Notes under the pieces: generated by a model | Told to the model about the DNA's origin: nothing | What the model saw: the letters and a program-made list of their open reading frames with translations, nothing else | The model's database searches: none | Translations under genes and position numbers: made by a program | DNA from: a virus | Lineage: Duplodnaviria; Caudoviricetes | Virus record (IMG/VR): IMGVR_UViG_3300032288_001600 | Span: 1 to 42,167 of that record | Length of the DNA: 42,167 nt | Reading direction: 5' to 3' (one strand) | Shown here: positions 1,270 to 42,167 of the stretch, piece after piece | How the letters are laid out: every line of letters starts with the position of its first letter | Position numbering within the stretch: the stretch's first letter is position 1

Positions 1270-1279
1270 GGACACCGTA

Positions 1280-4200: not shown

Positions 4201-7200
4201 GATCGCCACCGACCAGAATGCTCGCTTCGCATTTGTGTGGGCGCTGGCCGTGACCAGCAACGGCATGAAGGTGGGCAAGAACTTCGAGCTGGCCGAAGCG
4301 GCCTACGAGGCCTACAAGAAAACCGGCGCGATGCCTACCGACATCCAGGCAGGCCAGGCACAAAAGGCGATCAACGAATCGCTGGCGCTGTTCAATGAAC
4401 TAAAGGCTTCATGGGGCATCGATGACCTGCGCCGCTTCATGCTCACCAATTTCACCGTGGGCGAGATCGCGGCGATCAGCAAGGACTTGAAGCCCGGCGG
4501 CGAACACGCTGCCACCTTCGTCAAGGGTGCGGCCATCCTCGGCCCCAAGATCGGCAACGGGTTCTTCTCCAACCTGTACGGCAACTTCGATGCGCTCACC
4601 ATGGACCGCTGGTTGGTGCGCACCTGGGGCCGCTGGACCGGCACGCTGATCAAGCCCCAGCCAGTGCAAACTGCCAAAGCCCGCGAGCGCCTGAGTGCAG
4701 CGCGTGATGCCGTGGCGGGCGATGCCAAGCTGCAAGAGATTGTCGGCACGCAAATAACCAAGGACACGCCCGTCGACGAGCTGGCCGTGGCCATCCAAGA
4801 GGCCAGCACTGACCCCAAGCTGCGCTCGCAGATGAACGAAACCGAGGCAGGCACGGAGCTGCGCAAGGCGGGCAACAGCCTGGCCAAGTACCTCGATGGC
4901 CAAAAGGAAGCGCCAGCAGGCCCGAACGAGCGCAACTACATCCGCGCTGTGTTTGCCGACATGCTGGCCGAGCTGCAACAGCGCCCCGAGTACGCGGATC
5001 TGACCATGGCCGATTTGCAGGCCGTGCTCTGGTACGCCGAAAAGCGCCTGTACGAGACGGCAAAGTCTGATGTTGATGAGGAAGACGCAACAGAAGGGTA
5101 TACTGACGAGGACGCTCCTGACTACGCGAACGCCGCTGCTGCGGTGGCGCGTGCCAAGGGCGTGTCGGATCGCAAGATCCAGAACGCATTCAAGAAGGAA
5201 GAGCAAAATGGACGCACAGGAGATGCACGATCTGCGGATGTCGCAGGCCAAGCCCAAGCTGGCGGGCAGCAAGCCCAAGCTGTCGGCTTTACTGGCTCAG
5301 AAAAACGGCTCTTCGTCGGAGCCGTTGCAGTCCACCGCGCTCGATCCCACCGCGCAGGCAATGTCGAATCATCCGCAACTTACACGCGAGCAAGCGATAA
5401 AAGACGCGGAGACCCTGGGCTTCTAAAACCCAGATCCAAGAAAGACCTCGGCGTGACCTACACCGCCGAGTGGAAGCCCGGCAAATCCCTGGGCACAATC
5501 TTCAAAGCAAACGGCATTGCCACCCCGACGTTCTACGAACTTGTCCAGGGTGATGAGAAAAACGCACAGCGTTTTGCTGATGCCATCACTGCAAGCAAAC
5601 AAGCCAGCGGCGCAGTCGGTGCGGCGGTCTACGTCTACCCCACCCAGGACTACCAAGGCATGCGCCTGTTCTTGTCCAAGGACGGCAGCGCAGGTGTCGC
5701 GGTCAAAGCCGACGGCGACATCGTCTCCGTGTTTGCAAGCGGCGGGGCAGGGCGCTCGGTGATGGAGCTGGCGGTCGCAGTCGGTGGCACAAAGCTCGAC
5801 GCCTTCGACACTATCCTGCCCACCTACTACGCAGCGCACGGCTTTGTGGCCGCATCGCGTTTGGGCTGGGACGACTCCCAAGCGCCCGAGGGCTGGAGCA
5901 AAGAGGCGCTCGCACGCTACAACAAGGGCGAGCCAGACGTGGTGTTCATGGTGTTGGACAAGGCCTACATGAATGGCTACAGCATCAAGGACGGCAAGCG
6001 CTTGACCGACTACGACAAGGCCGTGGCCACGCAAGAGCGTTTGGTCAAGAAGTTGGCTCCGCTCAACGCGACGCTCTACCAGGGTGAGGAAGCCGCACGC
6101 GGCAAGATCGCCTTCGGCCAGGACATCACGCAAACGCCCAGCGTCATCACGCTCTTCAAGTCGGCCAACCTGTCCACGTTCTTGCACGAGTCTGGGCACT
6201 TCTTCCTCGAGGTCACCGCTGACATTGCCTCGCGTCCCGATGCGCCGAAGGAAATCCAGGACGACATGCAGACCATCTTGAAATGGTTTGGCGTGCAGGA
6301 TCTGGCCACCTGGAAGGCGATGGACCTCGAGGCGCGTCGTCCGTTGCACGAGAAGTTCGCACGCGGGTTTGAGGCCTACCTCTTCGAGGGCAAGTCGCCC
6401 AGCATGGAATTGAACGGCATCTTCCAGCGCTTCCGCGCCTGGCTGGTCAACGTCTACAAGCAAGTGGCCAAGCTCAACGTCGAGATCGATGACGAGATCC
6501 GTGGCGTGTTTGATCGCATGGTGGCCAGCACTGAGGCGATCCAAGAAGCCGAGCAGGCCCGCACCTACGTGCCACTGTTTACCACCAAGCCGCCCTTCAT
6601 GACCGATGAGGAGTGGCTGGCCTACCAGCAGTCCGACGCACAAGCCTCGCAAGACGCGGTGCAATACCTCGAGCAGCGATCTTTGCGCGACATGCAGTGG
6701 GTGTCCAACGCCAAGGCGCGTTTGATGAAGGCCATGCAAAAGGAGAACAGCGCCACACGCAAGGACGTGCGCCGCGAGGTCGAAACCGAGGTGATGGCCG
6801 AGCCGGTCTACCGTGCTCGCGAATTCTTGAAGCGCGGCACGGTCGATGGCCAGCCGGTCGAGGGCGGCTACAAGCTCTCCATCGCTGAGATCGAGTCCAT
6901 GTACGGGGACAACCCCATCGTGGGCATGATCAAAGAGCGCCTGGGCTTTGGCAAGTACGGGATGCTCGGCACAGACAACGGCATTCACCCCCAGCAGGTG
7001 GCCGACATGTTTGGCTTCAGCTCCGGTGACCACCTGGTGCGCTCGCTCCTGGAAGCGCCCGACCCTGCCGGTGTGATCAACGAGCGCACGGACGCTCGCA
7101 TGCTGGAGCGCTACGGCGATTTGAACAGCCCCGAGGCGCTGTCCAAAGCAGCCGACGAGGCCATCCACAACGACGCACGCGCCAAGTTCGTGGCCACCGA

Positions 7201-9817
7201 AGCCAACGCCCTGGCCAAGGCCACGGGTCGCCCCAAGATCCTGGCCGCAGCGGCCAAGGACTTTGCCCAGCAGTTGATCGCCAGGTTGAAGATTCGCAAC
7301 ATCCGGCCTGGCCAGTACGCAGCCTCCGCCTCGCGTGCAGCCAAGAACGCAGCCAAGAGCAAAGACCTGATCGAAGCCGCGACCGAGAAGCGCAACCAGT
7401 TGATCAACACCTATGCTGCCAAAGCAGCCTTCGAGGCCCAGCAAGAGGTGATCCGTGCGGTGCGCTACTTCCGCCGCTTCGAGAGCAAGAACATCTACAA
7501 GTCGGTGCATGTGGACTACCTGGAGCAGATCCACGCGCTGCTCGAGCGCTTTGACCTGCGCACCAGCACCACGCTCACCGAGATCGACAAGCGGGCCTCC
7601 CTCATTCGCTGGGTGGAATCGCAACGCGCCAAAGGCATCGAGCCTGTGATCGCGCCTGAGCTGCTCGATGAGGCCTACAAGATCTCCTACAAGGACATGA
7701 GCCTGGAAGACTTCCGTGGCTTGGTCGACGCGGTCAAGAACATCGAGCACCTGGGCAGACTCAAAGACAAGCTCTTGAAGATCCAGGATCAGCGCGAATT
7801 CCGCGCCACGGCCACCGAAGCAGGGGAGGTGATTCGCGAGAACGCCACCACCAGCATCCCGCAGCAGTTGGAAAAGGTCGGCATCCAGGACGCGGTGACT
7901 TCCACGGGCCGCGAGGTGTTTGCATTCCACCGCAAGTTTGCAAGCCTCATCCGTCAGATGGACGGCTTCAAGGACGGCGGCAAGCTGTGGTCAATCTTCT
8001 CGCGCCCCATGAACGAGGCCGGGGCGATGGAGGCCACCATGCGCGAGCAAGCCACCGTCAAACTGGGCGAACTCTACAAGCTGCTGGGCAAGGTCAACTT
8101 GAAGCAGAAGCTCTTCATCCCAGAGATCGGCGGCAGCTTGTCCCTGGAAGGACGCCTGGCCATCGCGCTCAACATGGGCAACGAGACCAACATGCGCCGC
8201 GTGATGGAGGGCGAGAACTGGAATCCGGCCCAGGTCAACGCGGTGATCGGAAGCCTCACCCGCGAGCAGTGGAACTTTGTGCAGGGCACATGGGACTTCT
8301 TGAATAGCTACTGGCCAGAGATTTCCGCCAAAGAGCGACGCATGACCGGCATCACCCCTGAGAAGGTCGAGGCCCGTCCCTTTGTCGTGACGTTGAAAGA
8401 CGGCACACAGATGTCCTTGAACGGTGGCTACTACCCCATCAAGTACAACCCCGCACGCTCGAGCAAGGCCGAGGCCGACACCGCAGCCGAGGTGTTGAAG
8501 CAAATGGAGCGCGGCCTCTACACCCGGGCACAGACCGCACGCGGTCACATTGAGGCTCGTGTGGAATCCGTGGGCCGACCCATGCGCTACGACTTAGGCG
8601 TGATCGACCAGCACTTGAACCAGGTGATCCATGATCTGAGCTGGCACGAGTACCTGGTGGACGCCAACCGCTTGCTACGCTCCGACCCTGTGGACAGCGC
8701 CATCCGTGAGCACTACGGCCCCGAGGTGTTGAGCACCATGCGCCACATGATGGAAGACATCGCCATTGGCGAGATTCCCACCATGAACGTCGTGGAGCGC
8801 GGTGTGCGCTGGGTGCGCTCTGGTGTGTCCATTGCATCGATGGGCTGGAATCTGATCACCGCCTTCACTCAACCCCTGGGCCTGACCCAGTCGATGGTTC
8901 GCGTGGGGCCAAAGTGGGTGGCCAAGGGCATGGGCCGGTGGCTGCGCGATGCGTCCAGCATGGAGTCCACCGTGCAGTGGATCACCGGCAAATCGGAGTT
9001 CATGCGCGTGCGGGCCAAGACCCAGCAGCGCGAGATCAGCGAGATTCGCAACACCATCCAAAAGGGCGAGACCCGCTCGGCGGTGGAAGGCTCGTTCTTC
9101 TACCTGATCGGCAAGCTCCAGCTCGTGGCCGACGTGCCAACCTGGTTGGGCATGTACGAGAAAGCCATGGCGGAAAACCCCGACGAGGCGCGTGCGATTG
9201 CCATGGCCGACCAGGCGGTGCTCGACTCCCAGGGCGGTGGCCAGATCAAGGACTTGTCGCAGGCCCAGCGCGGCAACGAGTGGCAAAAGCTGTGGACGAA
9301 CTTCTACTCGTTTTTCAACGTCACCTACAACCAGTTGGCCGAGACCGTGGGCGAGACTCGCCTGGTAGGCCCCAGCCGCTTGCCGCTGCTGGCCGTGGAC
9401 GTGCTGATGCTCACCGTGGTGCCCGCGACGCTGGGCTTTTTCTTGAAGGCGGCGTTGAAAGGCAAAGACCTGGACGACGAGGACAAGTTGGCCAAGGAGC
9501 TGGTGGCCGAGAACATCTCCTACCTGATGGGCACAATGATTGGCCTGCGCGAATTGAACGCCGCCGTGTCTGGCTCCATGGGCTACGAAGGCCCAGCCGG
9601 TGCGCGGTTCTTTGCTGACGTGGCCAAGCTGGTCAAGCAAGCCGAGCAAGGTGAGGCGGACGAAGCCTTCTGGCGTGCAGCCAACGAGCTGGGCGGGGTG
9701 CTGTTGCACTACCCAGCCTTGCAAATCGACCGTACCGTGCGGGGCATCATTGCCATGTCGGACGGCTCGACCGAGAACCCCATCGCACCGTTGGTCGGCC
9801 CACCGCCGAAGAACTAA
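1280..9817 (+). CDS. Giant polyvalent internal virion protein (~2,845 aa): LPD22-like N-terminus, ADP-ribosyltransferase, HhH-GPD-like, GNAT-like and zincin metallopeptidase domains
   Basis: GTG at 1280 after TAAGGA. ART-like motifs VYHGT/GIYFT/VYLSVKNP/GYDG/QIKSAIGNNG (~3350-3815). HhH-like motifs GPKIGNGFFSNL…TMDRW…DLQAVLW (~4130-5055). GNAT-like DGDIVSVF…KLDAFD…YYAAHGF (~5560-5960). TFLHESGH…HEKFARGFE (~6100-6530). Confidence 0.85.
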   Translation: MADNPYFKLVDQDLAAGIPPVVPAANDNPYMDLAKQDLELSQQRLKGVLDIVSPVNPDHAAEALKLSRTSGLPQQTVQDNLDDVRRQERVRLLNLQRMMADSPVLARQLNDPVFASIAQDQTEQMGNIEMASSYVGRSLQSGGLQLTAAATKLMEFFTPTTSEEDLATLFKNNPAGLKDMRENGAASALSRWARAQQTMANTIMEGMPAQVKAKYGNLEYLTTDTDNAAYLSPVKMIGDVVNSLPTTIALMGSMYLTKSAAGSTLARLEPLIGREAAMREATKVAAETMAYYSAVSEGAVGYAQQTNQTRAEVDKISQATLEKSPAYQDLVTVQGYSPEAARIYLSATTAEKAGTMAGLVDAITNFYGGRFLGKLINEGGALAPRIGKGFLTEGLTEAPQSMGEQFAQNLAVQQGMNPDQSLSEGVGEAGAAGFVVGGLTGGAFSGVFGRAQETVQQGQESAMRANQMFGLLNSLNDMASASKVRERDVQTFEGFMQSVEQEAGPVNMLYIDPKTLVETLQSAGANVRQVAEGLPSMANLDEQLKTGTLVAIPVSEFAARIAGTDYAQALMPHLQGDPSGMSKVQADEFMQNHGENLKAEVEKVLAERQGDEAFKGSMEKVKQQVLDEITNTQRFTKDVNESYATLMSTFYGVTAAKLGITPEEMAARYPIKVSAEGVNQGQQYDQAGNLKTETPQFKSFFGQSKVVDAAGNPLVVYHGTRPGNDIAQFEAPNKRDGIYFTPDAKYAEGFTEELFSNSEAKGAIYPVYLSVKNPYVVRAQDMESEEAQSFLYRGLNRADLEAQGYDGAMLYIGDELDQVMAFSPEQIKSAIGNNGDFDATNPNILMQDNEVAKEYAEEDAKEEEISDDVEAGTQGVVPTTVDDQAVLDSTLKLAKSKVWNKGRDLKLAIQEAVQNAAQAAGVDVSLPSPQSTEYLVRTGVKDALFALQQNPNAIGWYDVKTRQALSVMSLVHPEIATDQNARFAFVWALAVTSNGMKVGKNFELAEAAYEAYKKTGAMPTDIQAGQAQKAINESLALFNELKASWGIDDLRRFMLTNFTVGEIAAISKDLKPGGEHAATFVKGAAILGPKIGNGFFSNLYGNFDALTMDRWLVRTWGRWTGTLIKPQPVQTAKARERLSAARDAVAGDAKLQEIVGTQITKDTPVDELAVAIQEASTDPKLRSQMNETEAGTELRKAGNSLAKYLDGQKEAPAGPNERNYIRAVFADMLAELQQRPEYADLTMADLQAVLWYAEKRLYETAKSDVDEEDATEGYTDEDAPDYANAAAAVARAKGVSDRKIQNAFKKEEQNGRTGDARSADVAGQAQAGGQQAQAVGFTGSEKRLFVGAVAVHRARSHRAGNVESSATYTRASDKRRGDPGLLKPRSKKDLGVTYTAEWKPGKSLGTIFKANGIATPTFYELVQGDEKNAQRFADAITASKQASGAVGAAVYVYPTQDYQGMRLFLSKDGSAGVAVKADGDIVSVFASGGAGRSVMELAVAVGGTKLDAFDTILPTYYAAHGFVAASRLGWDDSQAPEGWSKEALARYNKGEPDVVFMVLDKAYMNGYSIKDGKRLTDYDKAVATQERLVKKLAPLNATLYQGEEAARGKIAFGQDITQTPSVITLFKSANLSTFLHESGHFFLEVTADIASRPDAPKEIQDDMQTILKWFGVQDLATWKAMDLEARRPLHEKFARGFEAYLFEGKSPSMELNGIFQRFRAWLVNVYKQVAKLNVEIDDEIRGVFDRMVASTEAIQEAEQARTYVPLFTTKPPFMTDEEWLAYQQSDAQASQDAVQYLEQRSLRDMQWVSNAKARLMKAMQKENSATRKDVRREVETEVMAEPVYRAREFLKRGTVDGQPVEGGYKLSIAEIESMYGDNPIVGMIKERLGFGKYGMLGTDNGIHPQQVADMFGFSSGDHLVRSLLEAPDPAGVINERTDARMLERYGDLNSPEALSKAADEAIHNDARAKFVATEANALAKATGRPKILAAAAKDFAQQLIARLKIRNIRPGQYAASASRAAKNAAKSKDLIEAATEKRNQLINTYAAKAAFEAQQEVIRAVRYFRRFESKNIYKSVHVDYLEQIHALLERFDLRTSTTLTEIDKRASLIRWVESQRAKGIEPVIAPELLDEAYKISYKDMSLEDFRGLVDAVKNIEHLGRLKDKLLKIQDQREFRATATEAGEVIRENATTSIPQQLEKVGIQDAVTSTGREVFAFHRKFASLIRQMDGFKDGGKLWSIFSRPMNEAGAMEATMREQATVKLGELYKLLGKVNLKQKLFIPEIGGSLSLEGRLAIALNMGNETNMRRVMEGENWNPAQVNAVIGSLTREQWNFVQGTWDFLNSYWPEISAKERRMTGITPEKVEARPFVVTLKDGTQMSLNGGYYPIKYNPARSSKAEADTAAEVLKQMERGLYTRAQTARGHIEARVESVGRPMRYDLGVIDQHLNQVIHDLSWHEYLVDANRLLRSDPVDSAIREHYGPEVLSTMRHMMEDIAIGEIPTMNVVERGVRWVRSGVSIASMGWNLITAFTQPLGLTQSMVRVGPKWVAKGMGRWLRDASSMESTVQWITGKSEFMRVRAKTQQREISEIRNTIQKGETRSAVEGSFFYLIGKLQLVADVPTWLGMYEKAMAENPDEARAIAMADQAVLDSQGGGQIKDLSQAQRGNEWQKLWTNFYSFFNVTYNQLAETVGETRLVGPSRLPLLAVDVLMLTVVPATLGFFLKAALKGKDLDDEDKLAKELVAENISYLMGTMIGLRELNAAVSGSMGYEGPAGARFFADVAKLVKQAEQGEADEAFWRAANELGGVLLHYPALQIDRTVRGIIAMSDGSTENPIAPLVGPPPKN
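5208..5426 (+). CDS. Putative overprinted 72-aa protein nested in the +1 frame of the giant gene
   Basis: AGGA RBS 8 nt before ATG 5208. The host frame becomes a low-complexity linker and its GC3 falls to ~44% (32/72 by hand count), while nested-frame GC3 is ~76% (55/72). Ordered-looking C-terminus HPQLTREQAIKDAETLGF. Confidence 0.65.
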   Translation: MDAQEMHDLRMSQAKPKLAGSKPKLSALLAQKNGSSSEPLQSTALDPTAQAMSNHPQLTREQAIKDAETLGF

Positions 9818-16711: not shown

Positions 16712-17151
16712 GGCTCGCCCTCATCGCGGCAGTGATCGCCTTCGCGGCGGGCTTCCTGGTCCAGGGCTGGCGCAAGGATTCTCAGATCGCGGAGATCGAA
16801 GCCGCCAATTCAAAAGCCCAGGCCGAGGCCGCAGCGCAAGCCGCAGCCGACACCGCACGCATGCAAAAGGACAAAGACAATGCACTACGACAAGCCACCA
16901 TCAAAGCCGCTCAGAACGCGCTTGCTGCCAATGCTGCTCGCACTGAGCTTGACCGGCTGCGCCAGCATGCGGACGCCACCGCCGCCGCAATGTCCGGCGC
17001 TACCTGCACCTCCGTCCGAGAGCACGCCGCAGCCCTCAACACCGTATTCGGAGAGTGTGTTGCAACTCTTGAAGGCATGGCGCGAAAAGCTGATGGCCAC
17101 GCCCTTGATCAGCGAACACTGAGTGATTCTTTTCCAAGGAGTAAACCATGA
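16708..17151 (+). CDS. Rz: Rz-like inner-membrane spanin
   Basis: ATGA overlap with the upstream stop. N-terminal TM (MRLALIAAVIAFAAGFLVQGWR) then an Ala-rich coiled coil with Cys; contains a nested lipoprotein ORF. Confidence 0.8.
   Translation: MRLALIAAVIAFAAGFLVQGWRKDSQIAEIEAANSKAQAEAAAQAAADTARMQKDKDNALRQATIKAAQNALAANAARTELDRLRQHADATAAAMSGATCTSVREHAAALNTVFGECVATLEGMARKADGHALDQRTLSDSFPRSKP
16880..17122 (+). CDS. Rz1: Rz1-like outer-membrane spanin lipoprotein, embedded in Rz
   Basis: +1 frame inside Rz; AAGGA RBS; lipobox LTGC; proline-rich mature part PPPPQCPALPAPP. Confidence 0.8.
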   Translation: MHYDKPPSKPLRTRLLPMLLALSLTGCASMRTPPPPQCPALPAPPSESTPQPSTPYSESVLQLLKAWREKLMATPLISEH

Positions 17152-17576
17152 ACTTAACGCCCAACTTCACGCTCGAGGAGCTGACCCACACGGATCACCG
17201 CGAGTTCGACAACACGCCCAACGACGAGGAGCTGGCCAACCTCGTTCGCCTGGCCGACTTCCTGGAGCAGGTCAAAGCGCTGCTCGGTGGCAAGACCATC
17301 ATCGTGAACTCTGCCTTCCGCTCGGCTGAAGTCAACCGGGCCGTGGGTTCGACCGACAAATCACAACATCGGCGTGGCTGCGCAGCCGACATCCGCGTGC
17401 CAGGCATGACACCGGACGAGGTGGTCTCGGCCATCATCAGTTCGGGCATTGGCTACGACCAGGTGATCCGCGAGTTTGATCGCTGGACGCATGTGTCCAT
17501 CCCCAACACTGAGGACACCGCGCCGCGCTCAATGGCACTCATCATCGACAAGTCGGGCACACGCGCCTACGCATAG
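17148..17576 (+). CDS. Endolysin, peptidase M15A-like zinc peptidase
   Basis: NFTLEEL…SAFRS…VNRAVGS…SQHRRGCAADI…WTHVS (His/Asp/His Zn ligands). Confidence 0.9.
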   Translation: MNLTPNFTLEELTHTDHREFDNTPNDEELANLVRLADFLEQVKALLGGKTIIVNSAFRSAEVNRAVGSTDKSQHRRGCAADIRVPGMTPDEVVSAIISSGIGYDQVIREFDRWTHVSIPNTEDTAPRSMALIIDKSGTRAYA

Positions 17577-17634: not shown

Positions 17635-17663
17635 GCCCCGGCCTTCGGGTCGGGGCACTTTTT
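17635..17663 (+). terminator. Rho-independent terminator ending the late/lysis operon
   Basis: GCCCCGGCC-TTCG-GGTCGGGGC then ACTTTTT, between convergent genes. Confidence 0.85.
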
Positions 17664-18131
17664 CTAGGCACGGCGCTGGTTGGCCGCAGCGTCGTACTGG
17701 GCCAGCTCCTTGTAGACCTTGTCCAGCTCCGCCTTCAACGCATCGCGCTCGCGCTCCACGTCCTTTGCGACCGAGCGCTCATAGGGCAGGGCCAGCAGCA
17801 TGCCAGGCGTGTAGCGCTGACCGTTGGGTGCCCACAGGTTGCCGAACTTATCAAAGCGCCAGTCCTTCCATTCACCCATTTGCTGGTAGGGTAATTGGCC
17901 ATGGGTGGCCGCACGCAAGGTGATCAAGGCTGCGTCCGGAATCCTGGATGTGCCTGCGATCCAGCGCATGAGGGTTGTGCGGTGGATGTTGAGCAGCGAG
18001 AGCGCAAAGCCCTCGCCACCCAAGTGGTCAATCAGATCGACCAGCTCCTGGCGGTGTTCGGTTGCACGGCGTTCGCGCACGGGAACGTGCGGGATTTGGA
18101 TGCGTGCGCGGCGTAGTTTTGGGGTGTCCAT
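17664..18131 (-). CDS. xafT: XafT-like Xer recombination activation factor (HTH + DUF3653-like domain)
   Basis: HTH-like ALSLLNIHRTTLMRWIAGTSRIP followed by WKDWRFDKFGNLWAPNGQRYTP, matching the DUF3653-type W.GW.F..G.L..P.G...P pattern. Start lies ~56 bp from a dif-like site. Confidence 0.7.
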   Translation of the reverse strand: MDTPKLRRARIQIPHVPVRERRATEHRQELVDLIDHLGGEGFALSLLNIHRTTLMRWIAGTSRIPDAALITLRAATHGQLPYQQMGEWKDWRFDKFGNLWAPNGQRYTPGMLLALPYERSVAKDVERERDALKAELDKVYKELAQYDAAANQRRA

Positions 18132-18145
18132 GGGGGTCTCGTTTG

Positions 18146-18183
18146 TGTTGAGATTAGACCAACTACTTGAGAATGTCCACGGT
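18146..18183 (-). promoter_or_regulatory. Putative xafT promoter overlapped by tandem operator-like sites
   Basis: Minus strand TGGACA (18174-18179)-N17-TAATCT (18151-18156). Operator-like TGTTGAGATTAGACCAACT (18146-18164) and ACTTGAGAATGTC… (from 18165). Confidence 0.55.
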
Positions 18184-18187
18184 GCAA

Positions 18188-18215
18188 ACTGCGCATAATG
18201 TATATTAAGTTTTTC
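18188..18215 (+). other. dif: dif-like XerC/XerD recombination site (putative attP)
   Basis: ACTGCGCATAA-TGTATA-TTAAGTTTTTC versus E. coli dif GGTGCGCATAA-TGTATA-TTATGTTAAAT: XerC arm 9/11, spacer 6/6, XerD arm 6/11. Confidence 0.85.
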
Positions 18216-18316
18216 TCAATACTCTGTGATTTCAATACCATCCCAGAGGCAAATTAGTTTTGCTATATCACTATGCTACCGTGGTGTGAGCATATTGCAC
18301 GAGACCCCTTAGAACG

Positions 18317-18406: not shown

Positions 18407-19999
18407 CTAGTCGTGGATTGAGGTTTCCTCAATTTCAAAGGTGTAGCCTTTGATCTCGGGGTACTTGGTTGCGAAGTTCACGAGGATCTTCGTGGGGGTG
18501 GCCAACTCGTCGCTCATGCGTAGAGCTTGATTGACCAGAATGGGGGCGGGCAGGTCGCAGCGCTTGTTCCACCAGGCGACTGCCTTGCTGCGAGCGTAAC
18601 CCTGGTGCTCCAGGCACACGTACTCGGACACCGAGCGGATGCCGCAGTAGTAGGTCACGCGCAGCGTGTCGACACCGCTCTTGCCGTGGTGTCGCATGTA
18701 CTCCACCTTGCTGACCGTCATCTCGACCGGGGGCACTTCGGTGGACAGGATCGCGCCGACGTGGTGCACCTTCTCTGCCTCGCGCTCGATCACCGGGAAC
18801 TTGAACCCACACTCGGGGCAGGTCTGAGACATAATCGGCACATGGCTCGAGCAAGTCGGGCAGGTCTTAACCGGGGCTTCTCCGGGTGGGCCTTTTTTAC
18901 CCTTGCGCGGGGGGATCACCTGATCGATGAAACCGTGTCGGCGTACATTCCCCCCAAAATCCAGGACCAGGCAGTCGGCCTTGCCCTCATGCAGGCGCAG
19001 CCCACGGCCCACCATCTGCACGTACAGGCCAGGTGAAAGGGTAGGGCGCAGCATCACCACAGCGTCGGTGGCCGGGTGATCAAAGCCCGTGGTCAGGATC
19101 GAGCAGTTGACCAGGGCACGCAGCTCGCCAGACTTAAACCTGCGGATCTGTTCGTCGCGCTCGGTGTTGGACATCTCCCCGCTCACGTAGGAGCTGGCGA
19201 TGCCGCGACGACCCAATGCTGCGGCCATTTGGCTGGCGTGCTCCACGGTCACACAGAAGATCAACCAGGCCTCGCGCTGCGCACAGCGCTGCACGATCAG
19301 CTCCGCGTGATGCTCGACCAGCTTGATGGCGCTCATGCGCTCACCCAACTGGCCCAGGTTGTACTCGCCACCTACGGTGCGCACGCCTTCCAGGTCGACA
19401 TCGTCGCCGTGCTTGGAGGTCAGGTTGGACAAGAAGCCCTGGCCAATCAGGTCGGCCACGTTGGCCTCGTAGCTGATGCCGTCGAAGAGCGCCCCATCTC
19501 CCTCGTGCAATACCCCCGAGTCCAAGCGATAAGGGGTCGCCGTGAGGCCGATCAGCTTGGTGTAGGGGTTAGCCGCCAGGCACGCGTCCAGGAGCTTCCT
19601 GTACATGCCATCGCTCTTGTGTGGGATCAGGTGCGCCTCATCGATGATGATGAGATCAAAGCGCCCATGGAACTGGGTCTTGTTGTAGATCGACTGGATG
19701 CTGGCCACGGTCACGGGCTTCAACTGTCGCTTGCCCAGGCCTGCCGAGTAGATGCCCACGGGCGCATGGGGCCACACACGCTTGATGGCCTTGGCGTCTT
19801 GCTCGACCAGCTCCTTCACATGCGTCACCACCAAGATCTGGGTGTCGTGGTATTCGGAGCAGGCGCGTCGAATGAACTCAGCGAGGATCACCGACTTGCC
19901 GCTGCCGGTGGGCGTGACGATCAGCGGGGCATTCTTGCCCGCACCGAACCAGTCGTAGATCGACTGGATGGCGTCGGTTTGATACTCGCGAAGTTTCAT
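18407..19999 (-). CDS. SF2 DEAH helicase with Zn finger (RadD/YejH-like)
   Basis: LREYQ, PTGSGKS, DEAH, TATP, LTTGFD, QMVGRGLR, CPTC…CPEC. Confidence 0.92.
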   Translation of the reverse strand: MKLREYQTDAIQSIYDWFGAGKNAPLIVTPTGSGKSVILAEFIRRACSEYHDTQILVVTHVKELVEQDAKAIKRVWPHAPVGIYSAGLGKRQLKPVTVASIQSIYNKTQFHGRFDLIIIDEAHLIPHKSDGMYRKLLDACLAANPYTKLIGLTATPYRLDSGVLHEGDGALFDGISYEANVADLIGQGFLSNLTSKHGDDVDLEGVRTVGGEYNLGQLGERMSAIKLVEHHAELIVQRCAQREAWLIFCVTVEHASQMAAALGRRGIASSYVSGEMSNTERDEQIRRFKSGELRALVNCSILTTGFDHPATDAVVMLRPTLSPGLYVQMVGRGLRLHEGKADCLVLDFGGNVRRHGFIDQVIPPRKGKKGPPGEAPVKTCPTCSSHVPIMSQTCPECGFKFPVIEREAEKVHHVGAILSTEVPPVEMTVSKVEYMRHHGKSGVDTLRVTYYCGIRSVSEYVCLEHQGYARSKAVAWWNKRCDLPAPILVNQALRMSDELATPTKILVNFATKYPEIKGYTFEIEETSIHD

Positions 20000-23666: not shown

Positions 23667-23696
23667 ATCATACATGATGTTGAGTTAATCCCAACA
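23667..23696 (-). promoter_or_regulatory. Early leftward promoter with 19-bp operator
   Basis: Operator TGTTGAGTTAATCCCAACA (23678-23696); minus strand TTGGGA-N16-TATGAT. Confidence 0.7.
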
Positions 23697-24888: not shown

Positions 24889-24918
24889 ATCATACAACAT
24901 GTTGAGAATGTCTCAACA
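24889..24918 (-). promoter_or_regulatory. Early leftward promoter (PL-like) with perfectly symmetric 19-bp operator
   Basis: TGTTGAGA-ATG-TCTCAACA (24900-24918); minus strand TTGAGA-N16-TATGAT. Confidence 0.8.
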
Positions 24919-24947: not shown

Positions 24948-25538
24948 TCAGATGGGCTGTATCCACAGGGTGCGTGCTGTCCAGGCGATCTCTCGATTCT
25001 CGAGCACGGTGTTGTCGCAAGTGAGCAGCAGGTTGAACAAGTCCTTCTTGTACCCGCGCCGCACGATGGCCATCACGAGTCCGCCGTCCTTGAAGGCCAC
25101 CAGGCACATCTTGTCCAGGCACTCAGCGGCCTGGCCCTGTGCGCCGTCGATGAAGTAGAGCCAGCCATCTTGCGGGCTGTTGACGATGCGAAGCTGCAAG
25201 ACAAACGAGCCAGAAGGCACGTCAGCCGGGGCGTTGACCGTGTCGTGTGTGCCCCTGGGCAGCAGGCTCACCGCGCAGTGCTTGCCGATGAATCCAGCGA
25301 TGGGAACTTTCCTCACGTCGTCCATGACCTCGATGCCTGCCTGGCGCATCACCTCGGTGACCGGCAGCAGGAGGTGACCGGCAATGGCGCGGGCTTCCTC
25401 CATGGTCATGCGTCGTTTGCCCGCGAGCATGTAGGACACGCTGGCCGGATCGAGGCCCATTTTCTTGGCGAGCTGGCGCTGGGATATTCCAACGGACTTG
25501 AGTTTGTCCTTGAACCAATTCTGATCGATGGGTGGCAT
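24948..25538 (-). CDS. CI-like repressor (XRE HTH + degenerate S24-like C-terminal domain)
   Basis: GISQRQLAKKMGLDPASVSYMLAGKRRM HTH; divergent from a Cro-like gene; beta-rich C-terminal domain lacking a clear GDSM…K catalytic motif. Confidence 0.85.
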   Translation of the reverse strand: MPPIDQNWFKDKLKSVGISQRQLAKKMGLDPASVSYMLAGKRRMTMEEARAIAGHLLLPVTEVMRQAGIEVMDDVRKVPIAGFIGKHCAVSLLPRGTHDTVNAPADVPSGSFVLQLRIVNSPQDGWLYFIDGAQGQAAECLDKMCLVAFKDGGLVMAIVRRGYKKDLFNLLLTCDNTVLENREIAWTARTLWIQPI

Positions 25539-25641: not shown

Positions 25642-25878
25642 ATGCCAAACCCCAAACATGCAATGCAACCCGCCCGAGCGGTGATAGACCGCTTCGGTGG
25701 CTGTCGCCCATTGGCCCGCGTGCTCGACATCAATCCCTCAACGATCAGCAGATGGACTACTTCCACCGCACGACGCGGTACGAATGGACGCATCCCCCAG
25801 AAGTACTGGGGCCAGATCTGCATGGCTGCGCAGGATCAGGGGTTCACTGTCACCGTGAACGATTTGGCCGGAATGTAG
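25642..25878 (+). CDS. Cro-like HTH protein (78 aa)
   Basis: GGAG RBS; VIDRFGGCRPLARVLDINPSTISRW…GRIP; divergent from the repressor. Confidence 0.85.
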   Translation: MPNPKHAMQPARAVIDRFGGCRPLARVLDINPSTISRWTTSTARRGTNGRIPQKYWGQICMAAQDQGFTVTVNDLAGM

Positions 25879-29997: not shown

Positions 29998-30553
29998 CGA
30001 CGTCACCGACTTGGTGGTCAAGGGCGAAGCCAAAGAACGGCCATTGACGCCCAAGCAGCAGATGTTCGTCCGCGAGTACCTGGTCGATCTAAACGCCAAG
30101 CAAGCGGCCATTCGTGCAGGCTACAGCGCCAAAACAGCGGAGGAGCAAAGCTACCAGCTCATTCGGAAAACTTCGGTTCAACGCGCAATCCAGGCTGGCA
30201 TGGACAAGCGAGCGGTGAGCGTTGACATCAGCGCAACACGGGTGCTGAACGAAATCGCGAAGCTCGCCTTCTTCGATCCGCGCAAGCTCCTCAACGATGA
30301 CGGCACGCCCAAGCGCGTGCACGAGCTGGACGATGAGACCGCCGCAGCGGTGGCCGGGATCGAGATCGTGACCAAGGGCAACGACGACCTGGGCTATGCG
30401 GACATCTTGAAGATCAAGCTGGCCGACAAGTCCAAGAACCTGGAGCTGCTGGGCAGGCATCTCAAACTCTTCACAGACAAGATCGAAATCGATGTCGGCG
30501 GTGAGCTGGCCCAACGCATGAAGGAAGCCCGTGAGCGCACGCGACAAGGTTGA
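29987..30553 (+). CDS. terS: Terminase small subunit
   Basis: LTPKQQMFVREYLVDLNAKQAAIRAGYS…DKSKNLELLGRHLKLFTD. Confidence 0.93.
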   Translation: MKFDDVTDLVVKGEAKERPLTPKQQMFVREYLVDLNAKQAAIRAGYSAKTAEEQSYQLIRKTSVQRAIQAGMDKRAVSVDISATRVLNEIAKLAFFDPRKLLNDDGTPKRVHELDDETAAAVAGIEIVTKGNDDLGYADILKIKLADKSKNLELLGRHLKLFTDKIEIDVGGELAQRMKEARERTRQG

Positions 30554-32060
30554 ACAAGAGCTAGTCGAGTACATGGTCGAGTGCAGCCACGACCCGCTGG
30601 GGTTTGTGCTGGGTGCATTCCAGTGGGGCAAAGGGGAGCTGGCCAAGTTCGACGGGCCCGACCAGTGGCAGCGCGAGACCTTGAACACCATCGGCGAGCA
30701 GCTCCGCGCCGGGCAGATCACCACGCAGGAAGCCATCCAGATCGCCATTGCATCGGGCCACGGCATTGGCAAATCAGCGTTGGTGTCTTGGATCATCCTG
30801 TGGGCCATGAGCACCTACGAGGACACCAAGGGTGTGGTCACGGCCAACACCGAGAACCAGTTGAAGACCAAGACCTGGGCCGAGTTGGCCAAGTGGTATC
30901 GGCTGTGCATCACCCGGCACTGGTTCGAGTTCACGGCCACGGCGCTCTTCGCCAAGTCAGCCGAGCACGAGAAGACCTGGCGCATCGACATGGTGGCCTG
31001 GTCCGAGCGCAACACCGAGGCCTTCGCGGGCTTGCACAACAAGGGCAAGCGCATCTTGCTGGTGTTCGATGAAGCCTCGGCTATTCCCGACCTGATCTGG
31101 GAGGTGTCCGAGGGCGCGTTGACCGATGATGAGACCGAGATCATCTGGTGCTGCTTTGGTAACCCAACCAAGAACGTGGGGCGCTTTCGCGAGTGCTTCG
31201 GCAAGTTCAAGCACCGCTGGAAGACACGCCAGATCGACAGCCGCACGGTCAAGATGACCAACAAGACGCAGCTCCAGAAGTGGGTCGACGACTACGGCGA
31301 GGATTCCGACTTTGTGCGCGTGCGTGTGCGCGGCGTGTTCCCGGCTGCATCGAGCAACGCGCTGCTGGGCCCCGAGGAGGTCGAGGCCGCGATGGCACGC
31401 GAGTACAAGCCCGAGATGTTCAACCACGCCGCCGTGATCCTGGGGGTGGACGTGGCCCGCCAGGGCGATGACGCCAGCGTGATCGCACGCAGGCAAGGCC
31501 AGGCTGCATTTCCGTTGAAGCAAATGCGCATCCCCGACACCATGCTGGTGGCCGCACAAGTCTCCGCGCACCAAGACGAGCACGAAGCCGACGCGGTGTT
31601 CGTGGACGCCACCGGCGGCTACGGCGTGGGCGTGGTCGATGCCATGCGACAAACCGGGCGCGACCCTATCGAGGTGTACTTCAACGGCAAGGCCACCGAC
31701 CAGCGCTACTTCAACAAACGCAGCGAGATGTACTTCGACATGGCCAAGTGGATCAAGAACGGCGGCTCGCTGCCCAACGACCCCGAGCTGGCCGAGGAGC
31801 TATGCGCTGCGACCTACTCGTTCCAGGGCGACAAGTTCCGCTTGGACGACAAGGACACGATCAAGGAAGAGATCGGGCGCTCGCCCGACAAGGCCGACGC
31901 CTTGGCGCTCACCTTTGCCTCGCCCGTGGTCAAGCGCACCTTGGCCAACCGCTACCGCAACCAGGCCAGCCGTGGCGAGTTCGACCCGTACCAGGCCATG
32001 CGGGCTGCGCGTGGTGCGCGTGAGGAGAATCACGACCCCTATAGTTCTCCAAACCGTTGA
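30531..32060 (+). CDS. terL: Terminase large subunit
   Basis: SGHGIGKS, VFDEAS, GNPT, GVDVARQGDD, RSPDKADALAL. Confidence 0.95.
   Translation: MSARDKVEQELVEYMVECSHDPLGFVLGAFQWGKGELAKFDGPDQWQRETLNTIGEQLRAGQITTQEAIQIAIASGHGIGKSALVSWIILWAMSTYEDTKGVVTANTENQLKTKTWAELAKWYRLCITRHWFEFTATALFAKSAEHEKTWRIDMVAWSERNTEAFAGLHNKGKRILLVFDEASAIPDLIWEVSEGALTDDETEIIWCCFGNPTKNVGRFRECFGKFKHRWKTRQIDSRTVKMTNKTQLQKWVDDYGEDSDFVRVRVRGVFPAASSNALLGPEEVEAAMAREYKPEMFNHAAVILGVDVARQGDDASVIARRQGQAAFPLKQMRIPDTMLVAAQVSAHQDEHEADAVFVDATGGYGVGVVDAMRQTGRDPIEVYFNGKATDQRYFNKRSEMYFDMAKWIKNGGSLPNDPELAEELCAATYSFQGDKFRLDDKDTIKEEIGRSPDKADALALTFASPVVKRTLANRYRNQASRGEFDPYQAMRAARGAREENHDPYSSPNR
32013..32045 (+). promoter_or_regulatory. Putative late promoter, copy 3 (within the 3' end of terL)
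   Basis: GGTGCGCGT-N18-TATAGT, 25 nt before the next ATG. Confidence 0.7.
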
Positions 32061-32866: not shown

Positions 32867-34588
32867 ATGAGTGAATACACCGGCGACAACCAACCCAGCT
32901 CGAGCAAGCTGCCAAAGCGAGACAAGCTCTACACACGCTGGGGCCAGTTGAAGTCCGAGCGGGCCTCCTGGCTTTCGCACTGGAAAGAGATCAGCGACTA
33001 CCTGCTGCCACGCAGCGGGCGCTTCTTCATCCAGGATCGTGACAAGGGCTGGCGCAGACACAACAACATCTACGACTCAACCGGCACTCGCGCATTGCGC
33101 GTGCTGGCCGCAGGCATGATGTCTGGCATGACGAGCCCAGCTCGTCCGTGGTTTCGCTTGGGCATCGCTGACCCGGAGCTGATGAAGTACGCCCCGGTCA
33201 AGGCGTGGTTGCATCAGAACACGCAGATGATGTTGCAGATCTTCAGCAAGGGCAACACCTACCGCGCACTGCACTCGATGTACGAGGAGCTGGGCGCATT
33301 CGGCACGGGCGCATCCATCGTGATGGCCGACTACAACGACGTCATCCGTCACTACCCGCTGACCACCGGCGAGTACGCCATTGCCACCAACTACCGGGGC
33401 GAGGTGACCACCATCTACCGCGAGTTCCAAAAGACCGTGGCCGAGGTGGTAGGCGAGTTTGGCATTGACAAGGTCAGCTCTGCGGTCAAGAACATGCACG
33501 ACCGTGGCAGCTTGGACCAGTGGATCACCATCGTGCACGCCATCGAGCCGCGTGTGGATCGTGATCCGCGCATGAAGGACGCCAAAAACATGCCCTGGCA
33601 GTCGTGCTACTTCGAGCTGAACCAGGATGGCGACAAGTACCTGCGCGAATCGGGCTTCAAGGAGTTCCCCGCATTGGTGCCACGTTGGGCCACCAGCGGT
33701 GGCGACATCTACGGCAACGGCCCTGGCATGGAAGCGCTGGGCGACATCAAGCAATTGCAGCACGAGCAACTGCGCAAGGCACAGGCCATCGACTACAAGA
33801 CCAAGCCACCGCTGCAAGTGCCAGCCTCGATGAAGAACCGCGACATTGAAACGCTGCCAGGCGGTGTGTCGTTCGTCGACATGGCAAGCAGTGCTGGTGG
33901 AATCAAGACCGCCTTCGAGGTGAACCTGGATCTCAATCACCTGCTGATGGACATTGGCGACGTGCGCGAGCGCATTCGTGGTTCGTTCTACGCCGACTTG
34001 TTCTTGATGCTGGCCAACCAAACCGATGCACGCATGACCGCGACCGAAGTGGCCGAGCGCCACGAAGAGAAGCTCTTGATGCTTGGCCCGGTCCTCGAGC
34101 GCCTGCACAACGAGCTGCTCGACCCCATGATCGAGATGACCTTCTCGCGCATGGTGGAGGCGGGCATCGTGACACCACCACCGCCCGAGCTGCAAGGTAT
34201 GGAGATCAACGTGGAGTTTGTCTCCATGCTGGCCCAAGCACAACGCGCCGTGGCCACCAATGGTGTGGACCGCTTCGTGGGCAATCTCGGAGCCGTGGCA
34301 GGCATCAAGCCTGACGTGCTCGACAAGTTCGATGCGGACAAGTGGGCCGATGAGTACAGCGAGATGCTGGGCATCAGCCCCGAGTTGATCGTGCCAAGCG
34401 ACCAGGTCGCCTTCATCCGCCAAGAGCGGGCCAAGGCACAGCAGGCCGCACAACGCTCGGCGATGCTCAACCAAAACGCGGACACCGCAAACAAGCTCGC
34501 CGGTGCCAACACCGGTGGGCAAAACGCCCTCACCGATGTGATGGGCATGTTCTCTGGCTACAACTCACCCGGCCCAACAGGAGTTTGA
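32867..34588 (+). CDS. Portal (head-tail connector) protein
   Basis: 573 aa; PARPWF, YGNGPG, MTATEVAERHEEKLLMLGPVLERL motifs of the T7/BPP-1-type connector. Confidence 0.95.
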   Translation: MSEYTGDNQPSSSKLPKRDKLYTRWGQLKSERASWLSHWKEISDYLLPRSGRFFIQDRDKGWRRHNNIYDSTGTRALRVLAAGMMSGMTSPARPWFRLGIADPELMKYAPVKAWLHQNTQMMLQIFSKGNTYRALHSMYEELGAFGTGASIVMADYNDVIRHYPLTTGEYAIATNYRGEVTTIYREFQKTVAEVVGEFGIDKVSSAVKNMHDRGSLDQWITIVHAIEPRVDRDPRMKDAKNMPWQSCYFELNQDGDKYLRESGFKEFPALVPRWATSGGDIYGNGPGMEALGDIKQLQHEQLRKAQAIDYKTKPPLQVPASMKNRDIETLPGGVSFVDMASSAGGIKTAFEVNLDLNHLLMDIGDVRERIRGSFYADLFLMLANQTDARMTATEVAERHEEKLLMLGPVLERLHNELLDPMIEMTFSRMVEAGIVTPPPPELQGMEINVEFVSMLAQAQRAVATNGVDRFVGNLGAVAGIKPDVLDKFDADKWADEYSEMLGISPELIVPSDQVAFIRQERAKAQQAAQRSAMLNQNADTANKLAGANTGGQNALTDVMGMFSGYNSPGPTGV

Positions 34589-35949: not shown

Positions 35950-36969
35950 ATGGCAACCTTGTCTACCACCGCCCTGACCCTCGCGGACTGGGCCAAACGC
36001 ATTGACCCCGAAGGTCGTGTACCCGTCGTCGCTGAACTGCTCTCCCAGTCCAACGAAATTCTCGAAGACGCCGTCTTCATGGAAGGCAACCTGCCAACCG
36101 GCCACCGCGTTGTCATCCGCACCGGCTTGCCCACCGTCTACTGGCGTGCCATCAACCAAGGTATCCCCACCAGCAAATCGACCACTGCACAAGTGGACGA
36201 GAGCTGCGGTATGTTGGAAGCCTACAGCGAGGTCGACAAAGACTTGGCCGAGTTGAACGGCAACACCGCTCAGTTCCGCTTGTCCGAAGACACCGCCTTC
36301 CTTGAGTCCATGAACCAGACTCAAGCGCAGACCATGTTCTACGGCAACCCCGGCACTGACCCCAAGCAATACCTGGGTTTGGCCTCACGCTACAGCTCTT
36401 TGTCTGGCGGCAACGCGCAGAACATTTTGTCTGCCGGTGGCTCTGGCTCCGACAACACCTCCATCTACTTGGTGGTGTGGGGCGACCAGACCGTGTTCTG
36501 CCCCTTCCCTAAAGGCTCCAAGGCTGGCTTGATCCACGAAGACCTCGGTTTGAACACCGTGTGGGATTCTGCTGGCGCTCGCTACCAAGCCTACCGCACC
36601 CACTACCAGTGGAAAAACGGCCTGGTCGTCAAAGACTGGCGCTATGTTGTTCGCATCGCGAACATCGACGTGTCCGACTTGATCGGCCAAACCGGCACAC
36701 AAGCCTCCACCGCTGCCACCAACATCATCAAGCTGATGGCCCGCGCTTTGTATCGCATCCCCAACATGTCCATGGGACGCCCCGCGTTCTACATGAACCG
36801 CACTGTGCACTCTGGCATGGCCTTGGCCGCGCTGGACAAGAGCCAGTACGTGTTGAAGATCGAGCAAGGCTTGACTCAGTTTGGCCAACCCAATAGCTGG
36901 TTGTCCTTCCTGGGCGTACCTTTGCGCCGCGTTGATTCGTTGTTGAACACCGAATCTGTCGTGTCCTAA
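35950..36969 (+). CDS. Major capsid protein (BPP-1/epsilon15 type)
   Basis: TLADWAKR…ELLSQSNEIL…EGNLPTGH…RTGLP…DWRYVVRIANID…GVPLRRVD; strong AAAGGA RBS. Confidence 0.95.
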   Translation: MATLSTTALTLADWAKRIDPEGRVPVVAELLSQSNEILEDAVFMEGNLPTGHRVVIRTGLPTVYWRAINQGIPTSKSTTAQVDESCGMLEAYSEVDKDLAELNGNTAQFRLSEDTAFLESMNQTQAQTMFYGNPGTDPKQYLGLASRYSSLSGGNAQNILSAGGSGSDNTSIYLVVWGDQTVFCPFPKGSKAGLIHEDLGLNTVWDSAGARYQAYRTHYQWKNGLVVKDWRYVVRIANIDVSDLIGQTGTQASTAATNIIKLMARALYRIPNMSMGRPAFYMNRTVHSGMALAALDKSQYVLKIEQGLTQFGQPNSWLSFLGVPLRRVDSLLNTESVVS

Positions 36970-41445: not shown

Positions 41446-42167
41446 TGCCACGCGTTCCAACCTACGACGACTTCCAAGCCTCACCCCAGGTGCTGGGCCC
41501 CACTCGTGTCGATGCACCCATGTCGCCTGCCATGGCCGCGATCCCCGGCCAACAGCAACAGCAGTACGGCCAGGCGCTCCAGCAAAGCGGAAATGCGCAA
41601 GCGCAGATCGCGCTAGACATCCAAAAGGATGTGAACGATGCCGCGACCAAAGAAGCCGACAACGCCGCAGCACAAGCGGTCAACACGCTGCTGCACGACC
41701 CCAAGTCGGGCTACCTCAACACCCAGGGCAAAGAGGCGCTAGAGCGGCGCGAGGATGCACAAAAGTACATCCAGGATTCGCTCGACAAAGCAGGGGAGAG
41801 CCTGACCAACGACATGCAGCGACGCATGTTCACGGATGTGGCACGTCGTCGCCTGCTGATGGCGCAAGAGCAGATCAATGTGCACGCTGCTGCGCAGACC
41901 AAGGTCTACAACGAGACCGAGACCACCAAGCGCATCGACAACTCGCGCAAGGACGCCGTGGCCAACTGGGCGCTGTGGAACACCGGCAAGGTGCTTGAAG
42001 ACGGCACGAAAGAACCCAACGCTTTCAGCACCGCCAAGGCCACCATGCTGGCCGAGGCCAATCACCTGGCTGCGATGAAAGGCTTTGGCCCCGACTCGGA
42101 AACCGCCAAGAGCTTGCGCTTGGGCCAGACCACAACCTTGCATGGCGACATTCTGAACACCATGCTG
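41445..42167 (+). CDS. N-terminal part of the internal virion protein that continues at 1..1269
   Basis: TAATG overlap; MPRVPTYDD…LHDPKSGYLNTQGKEAL…; open to the end of the window (not in the ORF track). Confidence 0.85.
   Translation, partial: MPRVPTYDDFQASPQVLGPTRVDAPMSPAMAAIPGQQQQQYGQALQQSGNAQAQIALDIQKDVNDAATKEADNAAAQAVNTLLHDPKSGYLNTQGKEALERREDAQKYIQDSLDKAGESLTNDMQRRMFTDVARRRLLMAQEQINVHAAAQTKVYNETETTKRIDNSRKDAVANWALWNTGKVLEDGTKEPNAFSTAKATMLAEANHLAAMKGFGPDSETAKSLRLGQTTTLHGDILNTML
42150..42167 (+). repeat. Terminal direct repeat, copy of 1-18
   Basis: Exact 18-bp match. Confidence 0.95.

Follow-up and report, generated by a model that had tools for sequence, protein, structure and literature searches.

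A dif-like site and a XafT-like gene in the integrase slot of a freshwater podovirus: candidate integration by host XerCD

How might a tailed phage that carries an immunity switch and no recognisable integrase become a prophage? The question is raised by a phage genome whose isolation setting is freshwater (IMG/VR record IMGVR_UViG_3300032288_001600; the 42,167 nucleotides analysed are referred to here as the window), in which a first-pass annotation had noticed a dif-like sequence beside a small gene resembling the Xer activation factor XafT and had proposed that the two replace an integrase module. XafT is described as activating XerD directly, without FtsK or flanking DNA, and as driving both integration and excision (PMC6744903). 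We think it probable (roughly 0.8) that the phage follows a TLC-type route, in which host XerCD and a phage-encoded activator together integrate it at the host dif, and lysogeny at that site is what we infer from the comparisons below.

A self-closing podovirus-type genome with a candidate attachment cassette

The window is a podovirus-type genome that, as had been claimed, closes on itself: an exact 18-nt terminal repeat gives a circle of 42,149 bp, and a 42,204-bp contig bearing the same protein is, by arithmetic, that unit plus a 55-nt overlap. The record is entered in IMG/VR as linear and 98% complete. The features to which the argument refers are the following.

17148..17576, plus strand: M15 peptidase endolysin at the end of the late operon (Pfam PF08291 and phrog_894)
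17635..17656, plus strand: terminator-like hairpin, seen in the sequence, between the convergent endolysin and activator genes
17664..18131, minus strand: Xer-activation-factor-like gene of 155 aa (HTH, DUF3653, long C-terminal helix ending in an AAN motif)
18146..18164, no strand assigned: operator-like palindrome between the putative attP and the gene start, with 3 mismatches to TGTTGAG-N5-CTCAACA
18188..18198, plus strand: XerC arm of the putative attP, seen in the sequence and facing the activator gene; inner CGCATAA kept in relatives
18199..18204, plus strand: TGTATA, the 6-bp central region; the common proteobacterial dif spacer has the same sequence
18205..18215, plus strand: degenerate XerD arm TTAAGTTTTTC, with T at position 1 and G at position 5 kept; 6/11 match to TTATGTTAAAT
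18407..19999, minus strand: superfamily-2 helicase, the last large gene of the early operon (Pfam/PHROG); in relatives an integrase lies downstream of it
24900..24918, no strand assigned: perfect operator-like palindrome TGTTGAG-N5-CTCAACA, an inverted repeat with near-copies at 23678, 25570 and 25874
24948..25538, minus strand: cI-like repressor (HTH_3, E 4.5e-8; start codon by eye)
25642..25878, plus strand: Cro-like gene divergent from cI (P22_Cro, E 1.6e-4; start codon by eye)
30531..32060, plus strand: terminase large subunit (phrog_2, E 6e-44)
32867..34588, plus strand: podovirus-type portal, or head-tail connector (PF12236, E 5e-188)
35950..36969, plus strand: major capsid protein of phiV10/BPP-1 type (PF20911)
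42150..42167, plus strand: exact repeat of bases 1-18, which closes the circle in frame at a unit length of 42,149 bp

Terminase, portal, capsid and tail tube genes are all present, which makes this a tailed phage (Caudoviricetes) with a phiV10/BPP-1-type virion. Across 52-53 selected ORFs out of 298 listed, Pfam and PHROG scans recognised terminase, portal, capsid, tail, lysis, primase, Sak4, Cas4-type exonuclease, helicase, cI-like and Cro-like genes. The ORF at 1202-9817 encodes a polyvalent protein of ejection type, 2871 aa long, in which LPD22 and ART-PolyVal domains are recognised. The virion gene set and its order (portal PF12236, GP7 capsid, Bbp16, Bbp19) are shared with BPP-1, phiV10 and DC33, and the capsid protein is 86.5% identical to that of zth2-2, 83% to that of Limnohabitans phage DC33 and 58% to that of phiV10. 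The label 'BPP-1-like' given at first thus suits the virion module but not the replication module, which differs from that of BPP-1. The DC33 record (PQ492659.1) is classed under Inoviridae despite a 39-kb genome and a podovirus-type virion module.

Two further claims about the genome, a cI/cro switch with operators and the absence of an integrase, ParAB or protelomerase, were borne out. The divergent cI-like and Cro-like genes are accompanied by operator-like palindromes: the consensus TGTTGAG-N5-CTCAACA, drawn from the window itself, is matched 11 times when up to 3 mismatches are allowed, where 20 shuffles give 1.65 matches on average. Six-frame searches of the window gave no match to PF00589 (tyrosine integrase), PF00239 (resolvase) or PF13614 (ParA), with controls positive in 13-14 of 14 genomes, and neither a recombinase nor a protelomerase was found among the 52-53 ORFs scanned with Pfam and PHROG; at this scope, ParA and protelomerase, the features looked for as marks of a plasmid prophage of P1/N15 type, were not matched.

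The candidate attachment site, at 18188-18215 on the plus strand, reads ACTGCGCATAA TGTATA TTAAGTTTTTC and is identical at 21/28 positions to E. coli-type dif, for which we used a 28-mer that also occurs in loci retrieved here. The description of its XerC arm and spacer as nearly intact holds; that of its XerD arm as degenerate holds in part, the arm deviating from TTATGTTAAAT but only moderately, with 6 of 11 positions matching. For comparison, the XerD arm of TLC is reported to deviate at 8 positions (PMC9226527). The 17-nt core of the site occurs nowhere else in the window when up to 2 mismatches are allowed, and 0 of 100 shuffles gives a match. Its spacer is also found in chromosomal dif sites, which may not be the dif of the host. 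A blastn search with the site was uninformative among the 60 of 256 matches listed, and 4/5 of the other viral contigs matching the 17-nt core are low-GC and unrelated. Nine viral contigs (L006, L007, L072, L082, L087, L114, L122, L126 and L127) have dif-like cores without an activator match; several have, by eye, terminase- or portal-like ORFs, and L006 and L127 each hold two close copies of the core. Some of these cores may be chance matches of a 16-17-nt pattern.

The start codon of the 155-aa gene lies 56 bp from the XerC arm, and the end of the gene adjoins the hairpin at 17635-17656, which itself follows the M15 endolysin. The resemblance of its product to HTH-DUF3653 proteins of XafT type, which had been proposed from a short stretch of residues, was confirmed by profile comparison. 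The protein matches Pfam DUF3653 (PF12375) at residues 87-123 with an E-value of 3e-4 and 21.3 bits, against a gathering cut-off of 22.4, and has a weak Cro-type HTH match at residues 32-84; an ortholog 85% identical to it (L001) scores 25.7 bits to DUF3653, above the cut-off. The NCBIfam model VC1465_fam (NF040522) is matched with E 1.5e-6 and 28.2 bits, below its curated cut-off of 70. When the subfamily of the window protein was aligned by hhalign with named VC1465/DUF3653 proteins, the probability was 98.5 (E 2e-15), the targets being 15 database proteins of Xanthomonas VC1465 and Aeromonas DUF3653 type, a set from which TLC XafT was absent. Within the closest subfamily (35 aligned members), marked by a C-terminal AAND motif, DUF3653 is matched in 30/35 and VC1465_fam in 35/35; a profile search returned 3,647 representatives at E 0.001 or better, and in the top ESM Atlas clusters DUF3653 is found on 13-42% of members. 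An AlphaFold2 model (pLDDT 88) predicts an HTH, a short strand-rich region and a long helix. Foldseek returned nothing from the PDB at E 0.001 or better, the rows being at HTH level, and among viral models it matched two uncharacterised proteins of uncultured tailed phages; the isolated phages searched for relatives of the protein gave weak PM2-type matches or none. Judged by sequence, the protein is a divergent homolog of the XafT/VC1465 family that is not a formal member by cut-off.

Such a gene can also occur in other settings. Homologs are found in Paraburkholderia and Burkholderia multivorans chromosomes, with cluster mates on 11-13 kb contigs; these may be non-tailed and were not counted as support, nor does the argument draw on the unpublished genome G151. 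Five loci (L204, L208, L210, L216, L218) combine a more distant HTH-DUF3653-like gene with replication-initiator-like and tyrosine-integrase-like ORFs and have no dif within 1.5 kb, and the three of them placed in our tree form a clade of their own. Since HTH-DUF3653-like genes thus occur in integrase-bearing elements without dif, the gene alone is no proof of Xer use, and its association with the site has to be considered.

Gene, site and slot across a family of loci

Two subfamily alignments were used to scan IMG/VR and yielded 56 and 9 loci, which reduce to 59 distinct contigs once repeats are removed; all but L266, a contig whose seed had come to light by its dif core, were recovered through the protein alone. 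Upstream of the gene, at no more than 4 kb, the core CGCATAATGTATA is present exactly in 47/59, with up to one mismatch in 51/59 and with up to two in 55/59, always with its XerC arm toward the gene and never on the opposite strand. The 8 loci without a TGTATA core at one mismatch still have XerC-arm-like sites with altered arms or spacers. The motif TTATGCG occurs 88 times in the 212 kb upstream of these genes and 3 times in the 362 kb downstream, and a weight matrix scores the window at 31.7, compared with at most 12.1 for shuffled loci and at most 7.4 for 11 control phage stretches. These loci are related: when their proteins are clustered, 46 groups remain at 95% identity and 25 at 80%, so that none of the counts is one of independent events. 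Freshwater metagenome contigs from other studies carry related strains with gene and site on one contig; one of the sequencing runs, X1, may be that from which the window itself comes.

As far as it was sampled, the family is also one of tailed phages without tyrosine integrases. Of the 59 records the 30 longer ones were tested, with PF00589 in 0 and a portal in 23; the 17 among them of at least 90% completeness all encode a podovirus portal, and 0/17 has PF00589. In the loci inspected, the activator gene follows the early operon and is convergent with lysis or tail genes, and the cassette is carried by two backbones, one with a DNA polymerase and SNF2 and the other that of the window itself. 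In a tree of 45 selected proteins, a single clade (99/98, midpoint root) takes in all but one of the 20 tailed-phage rows, or 19, and 7 AAND proteins of unassigned genomic context. A distant HTH-DUF3653-like gene in L099 (G007, 8976-9445) lies 35 bp from a dif-like site, in a tailed-type phage fragment that is 46% complete and has a different gene set; its position outside the main clade suggests a separate acquisition.

What occupies the corresponding position in relatives that lack the cassette is informative. Eight viral loci share the window's helicase, and none of the eight has a dif-like core; 4 are long enough to include the slot that separates early operon and lysis genes, and each of these has a tyrosine integrase in it, three of them over the PF00589 cut-off and the other (L043) truncated, with a weak N-terminal match only. 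L049 has in addition a DUF4224 xis-like gene. Two of the loci belong to complete genomes with terminal repeats (G008 and G009), both integrase-bearing, the capsid protein of G009 being 91% identical to that of the window, and BPP-1 is annotated at the corresponding slot with helicase, xis and int. With an integrase in the slot of relatives and a dif-like site plus activator gene in that of the window, the two are alternatives in one slot, and the proposed replacement of an integrase module by the cassette is upheld by this comparison.

The XerD arms of these sites provide a more mechanistic argument. The site search pattern did not include this arm, and a canonical version was found in 0/61 sites. 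Among 27 distinct arms, which are related by descent so that a binomial test overstates the case, G5 is present in 24, T1 in 15 and one or the other in 27/27, the window arm keeping both; positions 6-11, on the other hand, match dif in only 2-6 of the 27. According to the saturation mutagenesis of Miele et al., XafT-driven integration takes almost any arm with T1 or G5, whereas the FtsK-driven reaction needs near-canonical arms (PMC9226527). The retention of T1 or G5 in agreement with the XafT rule is, in our view, the strongest sign that these are live, activator-dependent attachment sites. The spacer tells a similar story: the main site keeps the chromosomal spacer and extra sites vary theirs, which would point to a host dif as partner rather than to self-resolution.

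Extra sites are not rare. Two or more XerC-arm cores are present in 21/59 loci, and 2-4 directly repeated dif-like sites lie upstream of the activator gene in L250, L254, L259, L264, L266 (the contig L123/G006, at 5890, 6830 and 7495), L268, L269, L271, L274, L287, L302 and L304. Some of the repeated sites have TGTATA as spacer and others differ (TCACGA, CGGCGC and others), and the accessory genes that they bracket include DNA methyltransferase-like ORFs. It is tempting to consider a larger scheme, to which we would give somewhat less than an even chance, of a widespread group of aquatic podoviruses that have exchanged int/xis more than once for a dif-attP and activator, that lysogenise at the replication terminus with repressor-controlled excision via the operator, and that collect accessory genes (DNA methyltransferases and others) by Xer recombination between direct dif-like repeats with differing spacers, the whole forming a phage-borne cassette array at attP driven by the host recombinase.

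Integration at dif and competing explanations

If the phage integrates as TLC-phi is understood to do, XerC would bind the intact arm of the circularised genome and the phage activator, in place of FtsK, would bridge to XerD and activate it despite its poor arm; a full crossover between attP and chromosomal dif could then proceed across the matching TGTATA spacers. In the integrated form one end of the prophage would have the activator gene next to a canonical dif, restored by the crossover, and the degenerate arm would pass to the opposite end and there resist FtsK-driven excision, a role proposed for such an arm in the gonococcal island (PMC9226527). The crossover would also separate the activator gene from the early operon. 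Near this gene no sigma-70 promoter was found; the palindrome at 18146-18164 makes control of the gene by cI/Cro possible, and motifs similar to it, seen by eye in L001, L286, L294 and L307, likewise suggest repressor control. The immunity repressor might then silence the activator in the lysogen, with induction triggering excision, although this is the weakest and most speculative step.

The predicted layout can be seen in small non-tailed elements with related genes (L200, L201, L205, L207 and G901). The element in G901 (C22, ~1,247,800-1,259,350) is 11.5 kb long, has by eye a PM2-type capsid-like ORF, and is flanked by a canonical dif beside the activator gene at one end and by a site with a degenerate XerD arm at the other.

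An integrated copy of the tailed phage itself was sought in several ways. A pattern scan of GTDB across all species gave 34 matches, all with chromosomal-type TTAAGT arms and no phage genes; these loci (L009-L042) lie in gammaproteobacterial genomes, many of them Steroidobacteraceae, their dif being a variant that has TTAAGT in its XerD arm, and L032 matches the window site by eye at 23/28 positions. Metagenome scans by protein and by pattern found no integrated tailed copy, nor did five profile searches of 151-401 genomes each (151 of the G003 class; 401 and 401, largely overlapping, of the G159 order; 401 of the G003 family; 401 of the G159 family), where the G159 order and family are taken, from their dif type, as Burkholderiales and Comamonadaceae-like. 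The flanks inspected were short for the first G159-order matches listed, and comprised in addition five longer regions and 5/6 and 5/5 of the matches of the family-level searches; those with recognisable content hold filamentous, PM2-like or small elements, and none match tailed-phage proteins. Because GTDB has one genome per species and many MAGs, this is weak evidence of absence. Contigs of 8 sequencing runs showed no junction or loose end at the site among the rows listed; one X7 contig (depth 3.9) stops precisely at 18199, where the spacer begins, and offers no further letters. The prophage junctions at dif that the first-pass annotation had suggested looking for were found neither in GTDB nor in the metagenome scans nor in the 8 runs, and its proposal of a dif and XafT cassette serving lysogeny at dif stands on its comparative predictions (homology, no recombinase, shared slot, gene-site link) but not on a junction.

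Published dif sequences, with those of the GTDB scan, bear on the choice of host. In those of Rhodoferax, Acidovorax, Leptothrix, Methylibium and Polynucleobacter an arm or the spacer differs from the phage site, and dif sites that fit it are those of Bordetella, Thiobacillus, Methylobacillus and many of Steroidobacteraceae type, as far as the scan and the compilations extend (PMC2731167; PMC3025954). A host among the Comamonadaceae is disfavoured by these poorly fitting sites. In some small elements (G1157:C1, ~4,607,000-4,616,400; G1182:C13, ~1,044,400-1,045,900; L183) the degenerate site carries the host-type ACGA XerC arm, and such arms being common to host and element suggests that the XerC arms of attP sites track the host.

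Three other explanations deserve consideration. The first is a pathway variant of the main model, in which integration at dif takes a XerC-first route with a XafV-like factor and is finished by replication. XafV is reported to be a structural homolog of XafT, to be encoded beside attP and to act on XerC-initiated reactions (bioRxiv 10.64898/2026.06.12.731946), and the XerC arm is the conserved one here; the restriction of XafV to such reactions means that a XerD-first route is not assured. We nevertheless consider the variant rather unlikely, as the phage spacer matches dif fully and would allow both strand exchanges, while in VGJ and CTX the overlap regions are described as prohibiting the second exchange (bioRxiv 10.64898/2026.06.12.731946), and as the XerD arm follows the XafT rule.

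Improbable in our estimation is a second explanation, that site and activator serve to resolve dimers or concatemers of the circular phage genome itself, whether it replicates lytically or persists as a plasmid-like prophage, with no integration at all. Every copy seen is an intact circular form and no prophage has been found, XafT is reported to be active on dif x dif and not only on attP x dif (PMC6744903), and a cI/cro switch would fit either kind of lysogeny. Self-recombination, however, leaves the spacer unconstrained, yet TGTATA is exact in those 47 loci and varies at accessory sites; moreover, ParA (PF13614) was not found in the window, and the cassette replaces an integrase in place. 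Finally, we regard it as highly improbable that the protein does no more than regulate transcription and that the dif-like site was left, as a relic or landing pad, by a small Xer-dependent element that entered an integrase-less phage, for while the HTH fold, the related genes in integrase-bearing elements without dif, the naming of P15/XafT as 'transcriptional regulators' (PMC12715192) and the arrays suggesting Xer traffic into these phages are all compatible with it, orientation and slot are fixed in two different replication backbones, T1/G5 is selectively retained, gene and site are intact in strains from independent studies, and integrase and cassette are mutually exclusive.

Should integration at dif by XerCD and a phage activator prove correct, a sizeable family of tailed phages would be temperate although integrase-free; its members would be classed as lytic by lifestyle predictors and lysogeny surveys based on integrase counts, and their borders would escape prophage finders. 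The family's natural variants of activator and attP arm are numerous, the arms agree independently with the T1/G5 rule determined in Vibrio, and the set would make the mechanism of XafT testable outside that genus. The arrays of dif-like sites, in turn, point to a gene-capture route for phages.

Comparison with known Xer-exploiting elements

Microviruses that integrate at dif exist. The Xer-exploiting elements named in recent accounts are filamentous phages, satellites, small non-tailed dsDNA phages and islands (PMC12715192; PMC11630473), and where prophages at dif are described they are filamentous or tailless, tailed ones being described as using their own integrases (PMC11630473). We found no literature example of a tailed phage using XerCD at dif, in a search that covered subscription papers sparsely; the supplement of PMC6744903, with 179 DUF3653 proteins and 250 genome hits, may list some.

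Among tailed relatives, BPP-1 (Rauchvirus) differs in encoding its own integrase and DNA polymerase, both absent from the window's gene set, and DC33 and zth2-2 share the virion module only, with neither a dif-like site nor a match to the integrases of the relatives. Acinetobacter pdif modules, in which dif-like sites reportedly bracket accessory genes, differ from the phage arrays in being features of plasmids; the arrays here are direct repeats. The gonococcal genomic island is likewise a large element having a dif-like site with outer XerD-arm changes (PMC9226527), but is presented as being without a XafT-like gene (PMC6744903). VGJ-phi resembles the window in that XafV, a XafT-like activator, is encoded directly beside attP, and is unlike it in being a filamentous ssDNA phage that is XerC-first, with overlap regions that do not match (bioRxiv 10.64898/2026.06.12.731946).

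The likeness to TLC-phi and its XafT (VC1465) in V. cholerae is closer. The attP described there has an intact XerC arm, a dif-identical spacer and a degenerate XerD arm (PMC6744903; PMC9226527), the HTH and DUF3653 gene lies on the XerC side and the arm bears the T1/G5 signature, and four sequence features of TLC-type IMEX are present in the window: the attP with its spacer, an arm with T1 or G5, an HTH and DUF3653 gene and no recombinase of its own. TLC-phi is, however, a small rolling-circle satellite, as opposed to a 42-kb tailed phage that is self-sufficient and has a cI/cro switch, and the window protein, a predicted activator, belongs to a separate subfamily below the curated cut-offs. 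The closest precedent for the swap of an integrase for a dif site is found in the PM2-like, double-jelly-roll, dif-type Vibrio prophages with P15/P16: in these dsDNA phages, integrase modules alternate with modules of dif and a XafT homolog, placed beside lysis genes and a variable region (PMC12715192). They are small and non-tailed (PM2 being 10 kb), with attL and attR documented in that account, whereas the virion encoded by the window is a tailed one.
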